Sequence record: OR842557
Origin: Escherichia phage 04086
Length of the DNA: 64,000 nucleotides
Strand: one strand, 5' to 3'
Positions 5,374-62,685 of this stretch are shown here, one piece after another; position 1 is the stretch's first letter, and every line of letters begins with the position of its first letter. The notes below the pieces were generated by a model that was not told the origin of the DNA, did no database searches, and was given only the letters and a program-made list of their open reading frames with translations. The position numbers were made by a program, and so were the translations under genes.

Positions 5374-6866
5374 AAATCCACCTGTTTCATTACGTAATTA
5401 AATTTCTCATCAGCATAACGTTGAATACGTTCTAAAGCGTGTTTGAGGGCGTAGTTCAAATGAACATATTTCTTTTTAGCCGTAGCTGATTTAGGCTTAA
5501 CACCCATGTCGTCGATGATATCCCACACCTGTGCTGTTGATTTAGAGGCATGTTTACGGAGTACACGACCAATTGTCTGGAGTACAATGATTTTAGATTT
5601 TACTGGATGAGCAAATACAACGTGGTGAAGGTTCTTAACGGAAATACCAGTAGAGAACACACCATAACTTGCCACAACAATAATACCCTTACCATTTTCC
5701 GCCATTACTTTCAGAGCATTACGCGTTTCAGTATTAACTTCACCTGATACATAATAAACTTCTTTATGTTGCTCTTTAACCATTTCAAAAAGAGTTTTAC
5801 CGTGTTCGATGTTTTTAAACATCAGGAATACGTTCTCTTCTTTCTTAGCGAGTTTAACAGCTAAATTAGCAACCCATTTATTACGACGAGTAGCCTTAGT
5901 AATGACTTTAATTTCTGATTGGTAATCTTTACCTTTCATCTTAACAGTGAATTCGTCTGGGTATCGAAGGAAAATACTGTTGATTTTAAGGTCAGTAACC
6001 TGTCCTTCTTCCATTAATTGGGAAGTGGATACCGGCTTAAACACATCACCAAACAAACCCATATATTGCATTAAATTAGCTTTACCATCTTTTAAAGAAC
6101 CAGACAAACCGAATTTAAACATACAGTTGGTTAGGCCTTCGATGATAGTAGAAATAGATTTACCTGTAGCCAAGTGGCATTCGTCGTTCATAAACATACC
6201 GAACTGAGCAAACCATTCTTTAGGTTGCTTGATAGCAGTTTGATAAGTTGAAACATAAATCATTGCATCGGAATCACGAGCAGTACCTGAACGAATACCA
6301 AGCATTGCTGCTTTAGGGAACAATCGATAATCGATGAAGTCATTAATCATCTGGTCGACGAGTGCAGTAGTAGGAACCAGAATAAGGATTTTACCTTCGT
6401 AGTTCTCAACGTAATATCGACTCAAGAGCGCCTGAATCAATGATTTACCTGCGGATGTAGGTAAATTCAGAATTGCACGACGTTTTGTCAGGCCGTTGTA
6501 TACGGCTTCATTCTGATACCAATGAGGCTCAATCTTGGTAGACCCTGAATAAATTTCTTGAGAAGCTACCCATGAATCGAAATCTTCACGAGAAATATCT
6601 TCCTGTTCAAGAATACGTGGGTCAATCCACAGAGAGTATTCAAATTGTTCGGCGAACTTTTTAATTTGAGGGACCAGTCCATAAGGCAGTTTACGGTTAT
6701 AATCTAGAAGACGAATACGACCATCCCATTGTCCATAACGAAATTTAGGGTTGAATTTATATCCATCAGCTTCAAAGCTAAAATAGTCTCTGAGTTCGTA
6801 GAATGTGGATTCATCACACTCGATACGGACATGACTAAAATTATCAAAATGTACTTGAATTTGCAT
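5370..6866 (-). CDS. uvsW: UvsW RNA-DNA and DNA-DNA helicase
   Basis: 498 aa; matches remembered T4 UvsW, with helicase motifs (LNLPTSAGKS Walker A, MNDECH DExH box). Confidence 0.92.
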   Translation of the reverse strand: MQIQVHFDNFSHVRIECDESTFYELRDYFSFEADGYKFNPKFRYGQWDGRIRLLDYNRKLPYGLVPQIKKFAEQFEYSLWIDPRILEQEDISREDFDSWVASQEIYSGSTKIEPHWYQNEAVYNGLTKRRAILNLPTSAGKSLIQALLSRYYVENYEGKILILVPTTALVDQMINDFIDYRLFPKAAMLGIRSGTARDSDAMIYVSTYQTAIKQPKEWFAQFGMFMNDECHLATGKSISTIIEGLTNCMFKFGLSGSLKDGKANLMQYMGLFGDVFKPVSTSQLMEEGQVTDLKINSIFLRYPDEFTVKMKGKDYQSEIKVITKATRRNKWVANLAVKLAKKEENVFLMFKNIEHGKTLFEMVKEQHKEVYYVSGEVNTETRNALKVMAENGKGIIVVASYGVFSTGISVKNLHHVVFAHPVKSKIIVLQTIGRVLRKHASKSTAQVWDIIDDMGVKPKSATAKKKYVHLNYALKHALERIQRYADEKFNYVMKQVDL

Positions 6867-20970: not shown

Positions 20971-23280
<2,310 letters not shown>

Positions 23281-57593: not shown

Positions 57594-58346
57594 ATGAATT
57601 ATTTAAAAATATATGAATCTTTAATAGAATCCACTATTAAAAGACCTCACATATGTGGGTACACCGAAAAACATCATATTTTACCGAAATCGATGGGTGG
57701 TAGTGATTCTATTGATAACTTAGTCGACCTCACCGCCCGAGAACATTTTATTGCACACCTATTATTGGCACGGATTTTTAAAAATCGCGAAATGTGGTCC
57801 GCTGTATATATGATGGCTTCAACAAGCTTGTCAAACTCTGACAGACATAGATGTTCATCGCATTTGTACGAATTATTGCGAGAACGTGCATCAATATATA
57901 ATTCAGGTGAAAATTCTCCAAATTGGGGAATTAAACGTTCCGAAGAAACACGATTAAAAATGTCAATTTCGAAAATGGGTTCCAAAAATCCAATGTATGG
58001 GATTCCTCAATGCTCGGAACACACCAACAAAATTAGTCTTGGTGTTATTGAAGCTTTTAAAAATCCGGAAATAAAAGAGCGACATAGGCAAAGTGTTTCC
58101 GGGGAACTCAATGGGTTTTATGGAAAGAACCATTCCGAAAAAAGTTTGGAAAAACAACGGAATGCAAAACGGAAAGGATTTCCTTGGGACAATTATTCAG
58201 AATTGTACCCAATTTGGGTTTCATTAAATTGTCCCAAACATCCAACATTCACAAATGAACTTGTTAAATTGGGATATCCTAAAAAGAAACTTGTTCGAAT
58301 AGTGGAAGAATTTAAAAATGAATATCTTCGAAATGTTACGCCTTGA
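57594..58346 (+). CDS. HNH homing endonuclease between nudE and e
   Basis: Motif [31 protein letters not shown]; N-terminus [11 protein letters not shown] paralogous to 43362..44012. Confidence 0.8.
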
Positions 58347-58868: not shown

Positions 58869-59276
58869 ATGACTCGTATCAACCTTACCTTAGTATCTGA
58901 ATTGGCTGACCAACACTTAATGGCTGAATACCGTGAACTCCCACGGATTTTTGGTGCGGTTCGCGAACGTATTGCCAAAGGGCAAGGCTTCTCTGATATC
59001 CCTAAAGACTTCCGCCTTGGTGCAGGGCACGTCAAGTTCTTTTATGTCAAAATTGGATTTTTGTTCTTGCGACAAAATGCAATAATTGAGGAACTTCTGA
59101 AGCGTGGTTACCAGATTCAAAATACCCATGTAGACGTAGCGGATATTCCATTACGGCTCATGAACGATTTCACCCCATCCGAAGCTGATATAGCTTTAAG
59201 CCAAGCTCGATTGGACGAAAAAATTGCACAACGCCCTACCTGGTACAAACATTACGGCAAGGCTATTTACGCTTAA
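58869..59276 (+). CDS. denV: Endonuclease V (pyrimidine dimer DNA glycosylase)
   Basis: 135 aa; [26 protein letters not shown] and C-terminal QRPTWYK.YGKAIYA match T4 DenV. Confidence 0.93.
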
Positions 59277-59318
59277 TTAAACCCGTGATAGAATACTTCT
59301 ATCAACTTAAGGAATAAT

Positions 59319-59678
59319 ATGAAAACTTACCAACAATTTATTACTGAATCTACTCAGCGCATTAACGAAGCTATGTCTCCTGAACAGTTGGCTAAAGCTA
59401 AAGAAGGGCTGAACCCGTCCGAAGTCTTTAAAGTTACAGGTAAAGATTTCTCTTCCATGGCCACTAACCAAAGTCTGGCTAAAGAACTTAAATCTAAATC
59501 TAACTTCATTCATGCTACATGGAATGGTGATTCTCTTACTTCAATAAGTGTGTACAATAAAAAAGGTCTCCTTAAGAGTTCTTATGGCGCGGATGCCATC
59601 CGTGTTTCTAAATCAGATTGGCATAAAAACACTACTAAAGCAGAAAAACCTCATAACCCGGCACTTGACCATCTTTAA
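59319..59678 (+). CDS. Internal-protein-like protein with capsid targeting sequence
   Basis: N-terminus MKTYQQFITE; 119 aa; RBS taaggaataatATG. Confidence 0.6.
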   Translation: MKTYQQFITESTQRINEAMSPEQLAKAKEGLNPSEVFKVTGKDFSSMATNQSLAKELKSKSNFIHATWNGDSLTSISVYNKKGLLKSSYGADAIRVSKSDWHKNTTKAEKPHNPALDHL

Positions 59679-59686
59679 GGAATAAT

Positions 59687-59944
59687 ATGAAAACTTACCA
59701 GCAATTTATCGCAGAATCCACTTTAGTTTCTAAACGTTGGAATATGATTGTAAACGTTAAACCTTCCGGCACTGAAGTTTCTATGGCCGACCCTAATGAT
59801 GACGAACTTGAGCACGCTTTTAGCTCTAAAGAAACTGACGAGAAAGTGGTTAAGCAACTGGTTGCTGATGCAGACCAACTTCGTAAAGTAGCAGATGTTG
59901 TTAAGCTGTTTACTAAGAAAGGTTTTAAACACGAAGAGCGTTAA
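59687..59944 (+). CDS. Internal-protein-like protein with capsid targeting sequence
   Basis: N-terminus MKTYQQFIAE; 85 aa; same RBS context as 59319. Confidence 0.6.
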   Translation: MKTYQQFIAESTLVSKRWNMIVNVKPSGTEVSMADPNDDELEHAFSSKETDEKVVKQLVADADQLRKVADVVKLFTKKGFKHEER

Positions 59945-60101
59945 TTAGCATTTTAAATGGGAGCAAGCTGGACCTCGCAATTCTGTGAGGGACTCCCGCC
60001 AACCTGTAATAAGGTCGAGCCCAAGTGCGGTAATGGGTAAATGCAGAAAGGGACGAATTAATGTGCCAAGGAATGGCCCCTCCACTTAAAAAGAGACAAT
60101 T
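59945..60101 (+). other. GC-rich structured non-coding segment (candidate small RNA or leader)
   Basis: 157 nt without ORF; nested inverted repeats (gggag..ctccc, cctcg..tgagg); GC content well above flanks. Confidence 0.2.
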
Positions 60102-60644
60102 ATGAAATTTTTAACCGGTAGTTATCTATCCCTGATGAATGCTTTTGCAAACCATTCTGATGCTAGAGTAGAACACATTTGTAATAGTGGGTTTTATGTA
60201 CCTGATTCACAAACCCTGTTTAAAGAATGCTGCACCTTAAAACTTGATGGTGGGCGCCAATCCGGTAAAACTAAAGCAGTATCCATTTTTGCCACAGAAT
60301 GGTTAGCTAATGGCGGCTCTATTGTTATTTTATCTAATAACACGGCATATGCCAATGTTTCGGCTAGTGCAATCCGAAAGGAATATTTTAATAACCATAC
60401 AGAAAGTATTAAGTACCGTTTGTACACTGATTCTGTTCGTAGTTTTATTGGTAATACTGCATGCAAATTCCGTGGATTATCGCTTTCACGTGTTCTGTAT
60501 ATAATTGATGAGCCTGTTAAAACACCTAATATGGATAAGATTTATGATGCCCATATAAAGGTGGTGCAACATTGCTGTCATGCATCATGTGTCGAAACCA
60601 ATCAAACTGCTCGTCCTCTGTTCTTTGTGATAGGAATGCAATGA
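60102..60644 (+). CDS. Small P-loop NTPase-like protein
   Basis: 180 aa; Walker A-like GGRQSGKT and Walker B-like VLYIIDEP. Confidence 0.45.
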   Translation: MKFLTGSYLSLMNAFANHSDARVEHICNSGFYVPDSQTLFKECCTLKLDGGRQSGKTKAVSIFATEWLANGGSIVILSNNTAYANVSASAIRKEYFNNHTESIKYRLYTDSVRSFIGNTACKFRGLSLSRVLYIIDEPVKTPNMDKIYDAHIKVVQHCCHASCVETNQTARPLFFVIGMQ

Positions 60645-60937
60645 TGACCGATGAAGAACTTTTTGAGTTCTGTTATTTCTCACGTAAGGTCCGAAGAGAG
60701 GACCTTACTGCAAATTTCGAATATGCTTATTTCTACCCGCTAGAATACGTGTTCATGACAGGGCCCTTTAAGGGCTCTCGTTTTAGATGTCATGCTCCTA
60801 GTATCCGATTAATGAAACAGGTTCCTTACTTCACTCTCGAGTTCATCTCAGGGCCTTGTAAGGGTATTATTACTCGTAGTCTCTTGACTTATGACCAAGA
60901 GATTCATATGATTTCTGACTGGAAAAAATATGTCTAA
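60641..60937 (+). CDS. Hypothetical protein
   Basis: ORF track 60572; ATG at 60641 overlaps the upstream stop (ATGA); 98 aa. Confidence 0.4.
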   Translation: MMTDEELFEFCYFSRKVRREDLTANFEYAYFYPLEYVFMTGPFKGSRFRCHAPSIRLMKQVPYFTLEFISGPCKGIITRSLLTYDQEIHMISDWKKYV

Positions 60938-61148
60938 ATTGACAATTGAAGGTTCTGAAGAAGCTCTGAAAAGATTTGTTGAATGGCTTAATGGACCAGG
61001 TGAACAAGACTTTCTGGAAGTCTGGGATGGCGGTCGGTGGAATGGTAAAGAAATGATTTACCCGACTACCTATATCTCCGTGCAAGGTTGGACTGAAGGC
61101 CTTCGTTTGGTAGAATATGATATCGCAACTGGCGAGGAAGTGAAATGA
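60930..61148 (+). CDS. Hypothetical protein
   Basis: 72 aa coupled ORF. Confidence 0.4.
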   Translation: MSKLTIEGSEEALKRFVEWLNGPGEQDFLEVWDGGRWNGKEMIYPTTYISVQGWTEGLRLVEYDIATGEEVK

Positions 61149-61423
61149 TTGAAGATATCAAGGGTTACAAACCACATACCGACGATAAAATCGGTAAAGT
61201 GAATGCTATTAAAGATGCCGAAATTCGGTTAGGGCTGATGTTTAAAGCTCTAGAAGAAGAACATGTTACCTATTATATGAACTTAGATACCGAAGAGGTT
61301 TCTGAACAAGAACTAGACCAGGCTCATGAACGCATTACCCAGATTCGTAATGCAATTGACCGTCTTAAAGAAGCTAGTATGTGGGCTTGTCGTTCTGTGT
61401 TCCAACCAGAAGAAAAGTACTAA
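61145..61423 (+). CDS. Hypothetical protein
   Basis: 92 aa coupled ORF. Confidence 0.45.
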   Translation: MIEDIKGYKPHTDDKIGKVNAIKDAEIRLGLMFKALEEEHVTYYMNLDTEEVSEQELDQAHERITQIRNAIDRLKEASMWACRSVFQPEEKY

Positions 61424-61427
61424 AGCA

Positions 61428-61478
61428 GTTTACATCTCCTGTAGACGTGGTACTATAGACCTATCAACTACAGGAGAT
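61428..61478 (+). promoter_or_regulatory. Early promoter stem-loop cassette, near-identical to 58812-58860
   Basis: agcagtttacatctcctgtagacgtggtactatagacctatcaactacaggagatta. Confidence 0.6.
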
Positions 61479-61484
61479 TACAAA

Positions 61485-61943
61485 ATGTCAGAAATTAATT
61501 CAGAAGTATTCATCCGCCGCAACAAATTACGTCGTCAGTTCGAAACCGAATTCCGCGAACTGAATGCGTCCATCAAAAAAGCCGCCATTAAGAGCGGAGT
61601 CCCAGCCTTCTTTATTAAGTACTCTAATCACTTGTTAGACCGTGCTATCCAACGTGAAATCGACGAAAAATACGTTTTTGCTTTATTCAAGCAACTCCAT
61701 AACCATGTTAAAGAAATTCATGAATTTTTAATCCAGGAACCTCTGCCTGATGTAGAATCCGAAATTGTCCCTGGTAAAGTGTATCGCCCATTGCGTCTCG
61801 AAATTACCGATAAAACCTTATGGTTGGGTATGACCGTAGACCGTAAACATCCTGATAAAGGATACTCGTTAAAATGTCGTATGGCATTTGTTAACTCTAA
61901 ACGTTTAGAAGGTAAAACCAGCACGAAAGTAATTTACTTGTGA
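61485..61943 (+). CDS. Hypothetical protein
   Basis: ORF track 61326 overlaps the promoter; ATG at 61485 (MSEINSEVF) after RBS caggagatta; 152 aa. Confidence 0.45.
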   Translation: MSEINSEVFIRRNKLRRQFETEFRELNASIKKAAIKSGVPAFFIKYSNHLLDRAIQREIDEKYVFALFKQLHNHVKEIHEFLIQEPLPDVESEIVPGKVYRPLRLEITDKTLWLGMTVDRKHPDKGYSLKCRMAFVNSKRLEGKTSTKVIYL

Positions 61944-61950
61944 GGACAGT

Positions 61951-62685
61951 ATGGAAACTATAAAATATCCATATGACTACTATAAAATAATAAATGACGC
62001 CTTATCTAGGGATACACCTAATGATGCCTATACAGAAAAGCACCATATAATACCGAGTTGCGTTGGTGGTCCTGACACTCAAGACAATTTAGTTGAGCTT
62101 TATGCTGACGAACATTATTTGGCCCATATGTATCTAGCCAAAGCTAATCCAAACCACTATGGGTTGAATTTTGCTTGGCTAAATATGAGCTCTACTTCAA
62201 ATTCAAAACAAAGGTCTTATTTTGTAGATTCTGAAAATTATAAGTTGGCTAAAGAATCATTTTCAAAATTGCAATCTATTAATAAAATTTTATTTTTCTC
62301 TAAAAAGGAAAATAGGGCTGCTCATTCAATGGCTTTAATAAAGTATTTTGAAAAGGAAGGCTCTAAAGAACGGCTCAAAGAAATTTTAAATTCGCCAAAA
62401 GTAAAAGCTAAAATGTCTGAAAAACGGGTTAAGTATTTTGAAAATCCTGAAAATAGACAAAAATTTAAAGCCATACAAAATTCTAAAGAAACTATAGAAA
62501 GGAAAAAAGCCTCTTTGCGGAAATCCCCTATATGGCATGAACCGATGTATTCACAATTATATAAATTATGGGTAGATAATAATAAACTCAAGTGTGGAAG
62601 ATTTAGTAAAATCGCAATTAAGAACGGCTTCCCTAATGTAGATTACCGAGGACTTATTGATTATGATTTTTCTAAAAAAACTTAA
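61951..62685 (+). CDS. HNH homing endonuclease (third copy, more divergent)
   Basis: Motif EKHHIIPSCVGGPDTQDNLVELYADEHYLAH; basic Lys-rich C-terminal half. Confidence 0.7.
   Translation: METIKYPYDYYKIINDALSRDTPNDAYTEKHHIIPSCVGGPDTQDNLVELYADEHYLAHMYLAKANPNHYGLNFAWLNMSSTSNSKQRSYFVDSENYKLAKESFSKLQSINKILFFSKKENRAAHSMALIKYFEKEGSKERLKEILNSPKVKAKMSEKRVKYFENPENRQKFKAIQNSKETIERKKASLRKSPIWHEPMYSQLYKLWVDNNKLKCGRFSKIAIKNGFPNVDYRGLIDYDFSKKT

Follow-up and report, generated by a model that had tools for sequence, protein, structure and literature searches.

A T4 vs.8 ortholog of the large-terminase ATPase type and a candidate structured leader RNA directly upstream of it in Escherichia phage 04086

The window analysed here is a stretch of 64,000 nucleotides from Escherichia phage 04086 (sequence record OR842557), a Dhakavirus/JS98-like T-even phage that WG01, Bp7, JS98 and vB_EcoM_005 match at 90-97% by megablast. 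Its plus strand carries, exactly as the initial annotation had described, a small P-loop ORF of 180 aa at 60102-60644 (Table 1). The comparison with T4 ORFs downstream of denV that this annotation had proposed leads, by both homology and synteny, to vs.8. By tblastn the protein is 61% identical to T4 Vs.8 (T4p119, NP_049732; 178 aa, full length), and its residues 1-180 match positions 1-177 of the 177-position profile PHROG 1488 (E 4.9e-70). The corresponding gene is named vs.8 in the annotations of Bp7 and JS98, and the window protein is 99.4% identical to a protein of the sequenced phage vB_EcoM_005. Searching with Vs.8 by tblastn, we recovered 1012 phage records, all from T-even-type phages of enterobacteria, 1010 of them at a coverage of at least 80%. 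The homologs are consistently ~170-185 aa long and share the same GMQ-stop end, so that the ORF is no truncated piece of a larger gene, as had also been considered possible. We regard the window ORF as almost certainly the T4 vs.8 ortholog with a single terminase-like ATP-binding fold. As a gene it brings little that is new, being the routine ortholog of a named T4 gene.

The initial annotation had also placed this ORF at the head of a coupled string of four (60102-61423), located after the internal protein genes, and both statements were borne out. All three junctions of the string are start-to-stop overlaps: the vs.7 ATG at 60641 overlaps the vs.8 TGA at 60642-60644 (ATGA), the vs.5-like ORF begins at 60930, before vs.7 ends at 60937 (an 8-nt overlap), and vs.4 begins at 61145, before the vs.5-like ORF ends at 61148. 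A 61-nt spacer with a promoter-like TTTACA-16-TACTAT at 61429-61456 precedes regB. The vs.7 product has tblastn matches in T4, PG7, PEi20, KPV15 and CF1, the vs.5-like ORF has matches at the corresponding position in seven related phages, and the window vs.4 product, a member of the Acb2 family, is 63% identical to that of T4. On the other side, the two ORFs upstream of vs.8 (59319-59678 and 59687-59944) both begin with MKTYQQFI(T/A)ES, a start that we take to resemble the capsid-targeting sequence of T4 internal proteins, and both are annotated as internal head proteins in related records. Further flanking genes were recognised by Pfam as NUDIX (nudE), a NUMOD3 homing-endonuclease-like ORF, phage lysozyme (e) and pyrimidine-dimer glycosylase (denV).

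Table 1. Positions of the genes, protein motifs and RNA features discussed in the text.
Feature	Position	Strand	Description
gp17	20974-22809	-	The window's true large terminase, 611 aa; on the other strand from vs.8
Conserved non-coding element, ~120 nt	59962-60081	+	Candidate structured leader RNA, directly upstream of vs.8
Element, 5' hairpin	within 59962-60081		CCUCGCA/UGUGAGG
Element, core stem-loop	within 59962-60081		P3 CC/GG, P4 CUGUA/UGCGG, P5 GGU-CGA-GCC
Element, 3' hairpin	within 59962-60081		GCC-AAGGAAU-GGC
Element, block 1			ACCUGGACCUC...; kept in eight genera
Element, block 2			ACCUGUAAWAAGGUCNAGCCCAAGYGCGGUAA; kept in eight genera
Element, block 3			GUGCCANGGAAYGGCCC; kept in eight genera
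vs.8 ortholog	60102-60644	+	ATG start, 180 aa; single-domain ASCE P-loop ATPase, large-terminase type
Vs.8 Walker A (P-loop)	60249-60272	+	GGRQSGKT, residues 50-57; invariant in 19 orthologs
Vs.8 F-R124-G125 motif	60468-60476	+	Before the Walker B strand; R124 and G125 invariant
Vs.8 Walker B	60492-60515	+	VLYIIDEP, residues 131-138; strand VLYIID, then E137 and P138; L132 and I134 invariant
vs.7 ortholog	60641-60937	+	98 aa; PHROG 2049, E 5e-45; annotated vs.7 in Bp7
vs.5-like ORF	60930-61148	+	72 aa; PHROG 1986, E 1.5e-35; tblastn onto the T4 vs.5 region
vs.4 ortholog, Acb2 family	61145-61423	+	92 aa; Pfam PF24729 Acb2_Tad1_hairpin, E 4.1e-15 (27-bit cutoff); vs.4 in Bp7
regB endoribonuclease	61485-61943	+	Pfam REGB_T4, E 4.7e-69; downstream boundary of the cluster

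This arrangement belongs to the whole family. In Bp7 the order is denV, vs.8, vs.7, a hypothetical protein, vs.4 and regB, and in T4 it is e, ipIII, ipII, denV, vs.8, vs.7, vs.6, vs.5, vs.4, vs.3 and regB. By tblastn, the order vs.8, vs.5-like, vs.4, regB is constant in representatives of Karamvirus, Gelderlandvirus, Jiaodavirus, Kanagawavirus, Tegunavirus and Moonvirus; vs.7 is found in most of the six. The position of vs.8 in the window, after denV and the ip genes and before vs.7, vs.4 and regB on the same strand, is that seen in the relatives that we compared (T4, Bp7, PG7, Melville, KPV15, PEi20, TG1 and CF1).

An alignment of 19 Vs.8 orthologs, 38-96% identical to the window protein, contains 32 invariant columns. 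These include M1, L4, Y8, L9, L11, M12 and F15 in the N-terminal helix, D49-G-G-R-Q-S-G-K, A59, R113, R124-G125, L132, I134, E137, K146 and Y148, and a C-terminal V-x-G-x-Q (V176, G178 and Q180), which in the window protein ends as GMQ. All family-invariant residues of PHROG 1488 (DGGRQSGK, R113, RG124-125, E137 and the C-terminal GMQ) are found in the window protein. AlphaFold2 gave a confident model (pLDDT 83.4, pTM 0.83) of a single domain with five helix-flanked strands (45-48, 73-78, 107-111, 131-136 and 173-177) and two N-terminal helices in front, the chain stopping directly after the last core strand at residue 180. The claim of a small stand-alone P-loop NTPase with a Walker A motif GGRQSGKT and a Walker B motif therefore holds, with both motifs intact on a single predicted domain and invariant in orthologs; the loss of the motifs among homologs, which the initial annotation had considered, was not seen in these 19 sequences. 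The sequence prerequisites for an NTPase (K56, T57, D136, E137 and R52) are all invariant in the alignment, and on this sequence evidence we think it likely that Vs.8 binds ATP or another nucleotide. A Cys/His metal site at residues 157-163 was considered and set aside, as it is conserved in close relatives only and lies in the block of lowest pLDDT.

The kinship of this domain was examined by comparing a 23-sequence alignment of the Vs.8 family with an 18-sequence alignment of T4-type TerL ATPases that are 45-100% identical to the window's gp17. Aligned by hhalign, the two families match over 120 columns with a probability of 98.0% and an E of 2.9e-13, Vs.8 residues 33-154 facing gp17 residues 143-273, which makes Vs.8 a homolog of the terminase ATPase subdomain. 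The result is decisive only with the TerL alignment, since the Vs.8 family against the single gp17 sequence gave a marginal match (26%, E 7e-4). Terminase_6N (PF03237) is the best Pfam family for Vs.8 (E 2.4e-4), at 21.2 bits and thus below the 22-bit gathering cutoff, and it matches 13 of the 19 orthologs in the sub-threshold range (best E 6.8e-5); PHROG 2 (TerL) matches Vs.8 at E 4.6e-4. By BLASTP, Vs.8 and the window's gp17 share short motifs only (E 0.07), RQSGKTKAVSIF and RGLSLSRVLYIIDEPVKTPN of Vs.8 being paired with gp17. In both the BLASTP and the hhalign alignments, the Walker A motif faces LSRQLGKT of gp17, with R52, K56 and T57 opposite R162, K166 and T167, and E137 is aligned to the Glu that follows the gp17 Walker B. 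The hhalign alignment starts at the invariant gp17 Q143, where the facing Vs.8 column is unconserved. The last strand of Vs.8 ends in GMQ where gp17 has a conserved TTT block (SSG...TTTPNG), a stretch that lies outside the hhalign alignment. Judged by its motifs (a Walker A of the form RQxGK[ST], (V/F)RG before Walker B, and hhhhDE), the Vs.8 P-loop is of the large-terminase type. Since Vs.8 has no nuclease domain, it is not itself a terminase. The large-terminase type of the P-loop had been missed by the initial annotation. PDB sequence searches with the Vs.8 protein and the family profile returned chance matches only (an aminotransferase, a conjugative coupling protein and FtsY), and Vs.8 matched no model of NCBIfam or PADLOC, including no anti-defence model.

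Searched against 1.84 billion representative proteins, the Vs.8 family profile gathered 52 clusters at E<=1e-3, all of proteins of 66-259 aa, and reached no terminase or TerL at that threshold. By this profile search, Vs.8 is a compact, separate family forming a narrow clade. Most of its distant relatives, found by HMM, keep GRQxGK[ST]. In one distant branch, GH[ST]T replaces GK[ST], D[VC][AS] replaces DE and the C-terminus is different; with both the Walker lysine and the glutamate gone from this branch, hydrolysis is not universally retained across the wider family. Such a pattern of residues fits a binding or scaffold role of Vs.8 at least as well as an enzymatic one.

The gap between the second internal-protein gene and vs.8 measures 157 nt, and ~120 nt of it are conserved. 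By a count from the alignment, this element (59962-60081) is roughly 93% identical between the window and T4, whereas the Vs.8 proteins are only 61% identical, and its three blocks are nearly invariant in eight Tevenvirinae genera in which Vs.8 is only ~40% identical. The element lies outside the stretch covered by the initial annotation (60102-60644) and was missed there. It is linked to vs.8 and not to denV, and internal-protein genes may precede or follow it, depending on the phage. KPV15 has an ip-like ORF between the element and vs.8, and a second, weak copy (27 bits) just before vs.8; in PEi20 and one metagenomic relative the element cores are duplicated in tandem. A covariance model built for the element (R1) found one copy in the 64-kb window, at 59995-60080, with 93 bits, the next best match reaching 13.8 bits. 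One copy was found outside T-even phages, after the endolysin gene of a 5.7-kb lambdoid-like viral contig (L063); its P3 is a variant of its own (ACGCG/UGCGU), and an intrinsic terminator comes after it. Most of the viral-contig matches to a 16-nt core pattern are chance matches inside unrelated genes.

The T4 RefSeq vs.8 CDS (219 aa) reads through the element. A stop closes this peptide-like frame in the window, where a 1-nt indel also shifts it relative to T4. Judged by the conservation of M1 across the family, that residue is the real start and the T4 RefSeq CDS is annotated 40 codons too long. We also considered that the element might encode a leader peptide, namely the 34-aa GTG ORF at 59985-60089 that equals T4's annotated N-terminal extension. 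This reading was rejected, the indel between T4 and the window changing its frame and, on manual reading, a stop and another indel breaking it in PG7-type phages. Mimicry of a host RNA was likewise discarded: the core occurs in none of 185,579 species genomes, and nothing relevant matched it in 5,426 E. coli genomes.

Covariation was inspected on ~30 copies of the element. The closing helix P3 covaries (CG in 19, GC in 10 and AU in 1), and 96.6% of its cells can pair, against 23-46% in controls in which the partners were slid. P5 shows changes from U-G to C-G, and the middle base of its triloop varies. The 5' hairpin differs in a compensatory manner, reading CCUCAU/AUGAGG in T4 against the CCUCGCA/UGUGAGG of the window. 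Most other pairs are invariant and therefore uninformative on pairing. RNAalifold proposed only 13 pairs, with covariation in two of them, and MFE z-scores of +0.37 and +1.6 are no better than shuffles, so that thermodynamic stability lends the element no support. Taken together, the structural evidence that the element is an RNA, drawn from aligned copies, is moderate. Two more pairings, a helix (UACA/UGUG) and a long-range GGAC interaction, are plausible by eye but are misaligned between variants by MAFFT, and we make no claim for them.

Known RNA families do not account for the element. Over 59000-62000, none of 4227 Rfam families matched at E<=1, and over 59930-60110 none did so even at E<=10; the L063 copy drew only terminator-driven chance matches from Rfam, and ARAGORN recognised no tRNA in the element. 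Promoter search and manual inspection identified no convincing sigma-70 promoter inside the element or just before it. The element is a possible new structured leader RNA; it could form part of a 5' UTR, lie between cistrons or be processed into an sRNA. It matters as a sequence that the T4 reference mis-annotates as coding, that has no counterpart in Rfam and that is more conserved than any neighbouring protein. If it were a true regulatory RNA for an operon that encodes an Acb2 sponge, and in T4 also TadIV-1, it would represent a new class of phage leader RNA.

Recent work has brought the T4 ortholog into the context of immunity. [quoted passage not shown] The authors left its role open and suggested that activators of this kind may serve in anti-defence and have come to be recognised by Avs2 (PMC13601566). 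The toxicity was shown for T4 Vs.8, to which the window protein is 61% identical. Because both the likeness to the terminase ATPase and the link to EcAvs2 were published there, our finding is already known in kind and family. A multi-omics study detected T4 vs.8 as early RNA and early protein (PMC9697503 supplement). A third study identified T4 vs.3 as the type IV Thoeris sponge TadIV-1, reported that in uninfected E. coli the region upstream of vs.8 drives expression of a vs.8-vs.3 fragment and, testing the T4 genes vs.3 to vs.8 singly, found type IV Thoeris to be inhibited by vs.3 only (PMC13243611). The gene name, the EcAvs2 toxicity and the early expression in T4 had all escaped the initial annotation.

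A model that we consider rather probable as a whole is that the window ORF is a vs.8 ortholog, kin to terminase subdomain I, and that its product is an early ATP-binding accessory protein at the phage-immunity interface and not part of the packaging motor. The Vs.8 domain and subdomain I of the T4-type large-terminase (gp17) ATPase have a common ancestry. Vs.8 would bind ATP-Mg through K56/T57 and D136, and would hydrolyse the ATP, probably with E137, R52 acting in the role proposed for gp17 R162. If the window protein follows its T4 ortholog, it would be produced at the early stage, well ahead of the late terminase, and would offer host factors that recognise terminase a terminase-like, ATP-loaded face. 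Standing outside the packaging motor, it might then serve as a decoy or competitor for some of these factors, or act against defence as an effector that Avs2 has come to detect. For the accessory role at the phage-host immunity interface, taken on its own, our confidence is tentative.

Other roles for a protein of this build have to be weighed against this model. One of them would make Vs.8 a minimal NTPase that depends on nucleic acid, a RecA1 module of helicase type acting early on host or phage RNA or DNA, possibly together with Vs.7; this seems unlikely to us. Foldseek of Vs.8 against the PDB gave weak generic helicase matches only (best E 7e-4), and the two tandem RecA-like domains that define SF2 helicases are not found in Vs.8.

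A place in DNA packaging is another reading, for which the homology to the gp17 ATPase subdomain speaks: Vs.8 as a regulator or auxiliary subunit of packaging or of the terminase nuclease, a truncated TerL paralog that meets gp16, gp17 or the portal and, for example, restrains premature genome cutting or modulates the motor. The Walker motifs and (V/F)RG are retained, and the gene is conserved in the 1012 T-even-type records. We nevertheless hold this to be quite unlikely. In T4, terminase and heads are late. The RNA and protein of vs.8, in contrast, are early (PMC9697503 supplement), and the gene sits in a variable early accessory region and not in the packaging module; gp17 is encoded on the other strand (Table 1). 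Nothing of gp17 beyond residues 143-273 is represented in Vs.8, and the clade is narrow, with only 52 cluster representatives among 1.84 billion proteins.

Vs.8 might also be a nucleotide-binding sponge or hydrolase that depletes a nucleotide pool or clears an immune signal of the host, alongside Acb2 and T4 TadIV-1. It shares its coupled cluster with the Acb2 homolog, the T4 cluster holds TadIV-1 as well, and the nucleotide-binding site of Vs.8 is intact in sequence. Against this, known sponges such as Acb2, Tad1, Tad2 and TadIV-1 are not P-loop proteins, a P-loop combined with an acidic pair in Walker B is what one expects of ordinary binding and hydrolysis of NTP, no similarity to anti-defence models was found with PADLOC, and T4 Vs.8 alone does not inhibit type IV Thoeris (PMC13243611). 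We consider such a role very unlikely. Finally, a decaying, functionless remnant of a terminase duplication, which a Pfam terminase score just below threshold (21.2 vs 22 bits) and the loss of the Walker lysine and acidic pair in some distant relatives (GH[ST]T, hhhhD[VC][AS]) might suggest, is essentially excluded by the conservation of Vs.8, with 32 invariant columns that take in all catalytic-type residues and both termini among orthologs at 38-96% identity, a constant length, a gene kept in more than 1000 genomes, a T4 protein that is detected early (PMC9697503 supplement) and an upstream leader even more conserved than vs.8 itself.

Why an ATP-binding domain like that of terminase should be produced by T-even phages so early in infection is a question raised explicitly in the EcAvs2 study (PMC13601566). 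A mimic that is catalytically intact and to which a terminase receptor responds would offer a direct handle on the co-evolution of phages with pattern-recognition immunity, and the invariant residues of Vs.8 provide ready-made mutants for its study. A more ambitious proposal, and one that we hold as doubtful, combines the two findings at this locus: the element as an undescribed structured RNA, be it a cis-acting leader of the riboswitch or protein-binding type or a processed sRNA, that controls or accompanies a counter-defence operon (vs.8-vs.7-vs.5-like-acb2, with tadIV-1 added in T4) in T-even phages, and Vs.8 as an early terminase mimic that engages host terminase sensors. Should both the leader RNA and the mimicry prove true, the locus would be a regulated immune-interface module.

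Several known systems resemble the locus in part. The closest relative of the Vs.8 domain, gp17 (PF03237; PDB 2O0H), has 611 aa where Vs.8 has 180; its sequence outside 143-273, including the C-terminal RNase H-like nuclease domain, has no counterpart in Vs.8, which unlike gp17 carries its own conserved N-terminal helix (YLSLMNAF) and is encoded by an early gene. Small uncharacterised proteins (~145-175 aa) of other T4-like and jumbo myoviruses in BFVD have a size and fold like those of Vs.8 (Foldseek E 1e-8 to 1e-4). They come from Proteus phiP4-3, Ralstonia phiRSL1, Aeromonas phiAS5 and Aes012, Acinetobacter 133, and Pseudomonas 201phi2-1, PhiPA3 and Phabio, and as they are only 11-24% identical to Vs.8 in sequence, the likeness rests on fold and size. 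Ksap1 and Ksap2, small non-terminase activators of Avs2 (PMC11564622; PMC13601566), are like Vs.8 small phage proteins, although from other phage lineages.

The element, for its part, recalls the PeSL (promoter-early stem-loop) cassettes of T4-type phages, which are likewise intergenic, conserved and hairpin-containing and stand at a boundary of accessory-gene shuffling, here the ip genes. A PeSL is short and recurs many times within one genome, whereas the element is ~120 nt long and single-copy in the window. Like the cis-regulatory RNAs of the riboswitch and leader type, the element lies directly 5' of an operon; it differs from them in having no Rfam match, no terminator and, on inspection, no obvious sequestration of a ribosome-binding site. 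The nearest parallel to the locus as a whole is T4, whose Vs.8 has all the motifs of the window protein and where vs.7, vs.4 and regB follow vs.8 and the conserved element precedes it, as in the window. The two differ in that vs.6 and vs.3 of T4 are absent from the window, and in that two internal-protein genes stand in the window between denV and the unit formed by the leader and vs.8.

Immediately upstream of vs.8, the gene for a 180-aa ATPase-domain protein, we found a non-coding element which, in a comparison over eight Tevenvirinae genera, is more conserved than its flanking genes and shows covariation in one helix. The window contains one copy, for which there is no Rfam match, and we regard it as a candidate new structured leader RNA. 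In T4, the RefSeq vs.8 CDS (219 aa) encloses the counterpart of the element and appears to be about 40 codons too long. The conserved non-coding element accounts for its extra N-terminal stretch (MRDSRQPVIRSSPSAVMGK...). The window's counterpart of this extension is closed by a stop, leaving a spurious ORF (59985-60089), and the reading frame is not kept in other genera.

Features of the leader element, the coupled string and their surroundings; coordinates refer to the window unless a locus is named
Feature	Position	Strand	Remarks
Non-coding element, ~120 nt	59962-60081	+	immediately 5' of vs.8
T4 counterpart of element	L002 (T4 NC_000866) locus 5794-5913	minus	inside RefSeq vs.8 CDS
Core hairpin outside T-even phages	L063:1800-1960	-	IMGVR_UViG_3300005293_000125
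Tandem duplicated cores, PEi20	L006:1282-1482		
Tandem duplicated cores, one metagenomic relative	L043:9021-9221		
Element, inserted ORF, second element copy, KPV15	L005:992-1483		
Distant Vs.8-like branch	P0053, P0060, P0062, P0065		proteins in alignment A6
72-aa ORF, unnamed in Bp7	60930-61148	+	match to T4 vs.5 region
Acb2-family (T4 vs.4) protein	61145-61423	+	last gene of coupled string; Pfam PF24729, E 4e-15
Homing-endonuclease-like ORF	57594-58346	+	Pfam NUMOD3; (E)KHHI(L/I)P
Homing-endonuclease-like ORF	61951-62685	+	(E)KHHI(L/I)P
e-denV-ip region	58869-59944	+	order unlike T4
Promoter-like site TTTACG-17-TAGAAT with TG	59266-59294	+	end of denV, just 5' of ip genes
Promoter-like site TTTACA-16-TACTAT with TG	61429-61456	+	just 5' of regB

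The sole copy of the core hairpin found outside T-even phages lies directly after an endolysin gene of a lambdoid-like contig. Its closing helix (ACGCG/UGCGU) and 3' part differ, and an intrinsic terminator follows. This copy suggests that the core can form a small RNA module in its own right. Tandem cores occur in two loci, those of PEi20 and one metagenomic relative. In KPV15 the element and vs.8 are separated by an inserted internal-protein-like ORF (start MKTYKEFITEAK), and a second, weak copy of the element lies just 5' of vs.8. Exchange of internal protein (ip) cassettes may thus have one of its boundaries at the element.

In the distant branch of the 23-sequence Vs.8 family alignment, GK[ST] is replaced by GH[ST]T and hhhhDE by hhhhD[VC][AS], and the C-terminus is different; these members are probably not hydrolases. 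Matches of our Vs.8 structure model (m9f7d139ffb80) to predicted viral structures (BFVD) include uncharacterised proteins of 145-175 aa from jumbo phages and other T4-like phages (phiRSL1, 201phi2-1, PhiPA3, Phabio, phiAS5, Aes012, Acinetobacter 133). This predicted resemblance hints that stand-alone mini-ATPases form a broader class among large myoviruses. Within the coupled string headed by vs.8, the 72-aa ORF has a tblastn match that continues past the stop annotated for vs.5 in T4. The T4 gene may therefore be a truncated version or use a different reading frame. T4 vs.3 (TadIV-1) and vs.6 have no counterpart in the window.

Of the two homing-endonuclease-like ORFs, which share a motif, one forms an insertion between nudE and e and overlaps the start of e with its 3' end, and the other, for which no Pfam NUMOD3 match was obtained, sits between regB and vs.1; T4 and Bp7 have neither at the corresponding positions. 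Immediately 5' of the leader element there is no promoter-like site comparable to those preceding the ip genes and regB. Finally, the gene order is unlike that of T4 (e, ipIII, ipII, denV): the window carries e, denV and two ip-like genes in that order, so that the ip genes lie between denV and the leader/vs.8 unit.
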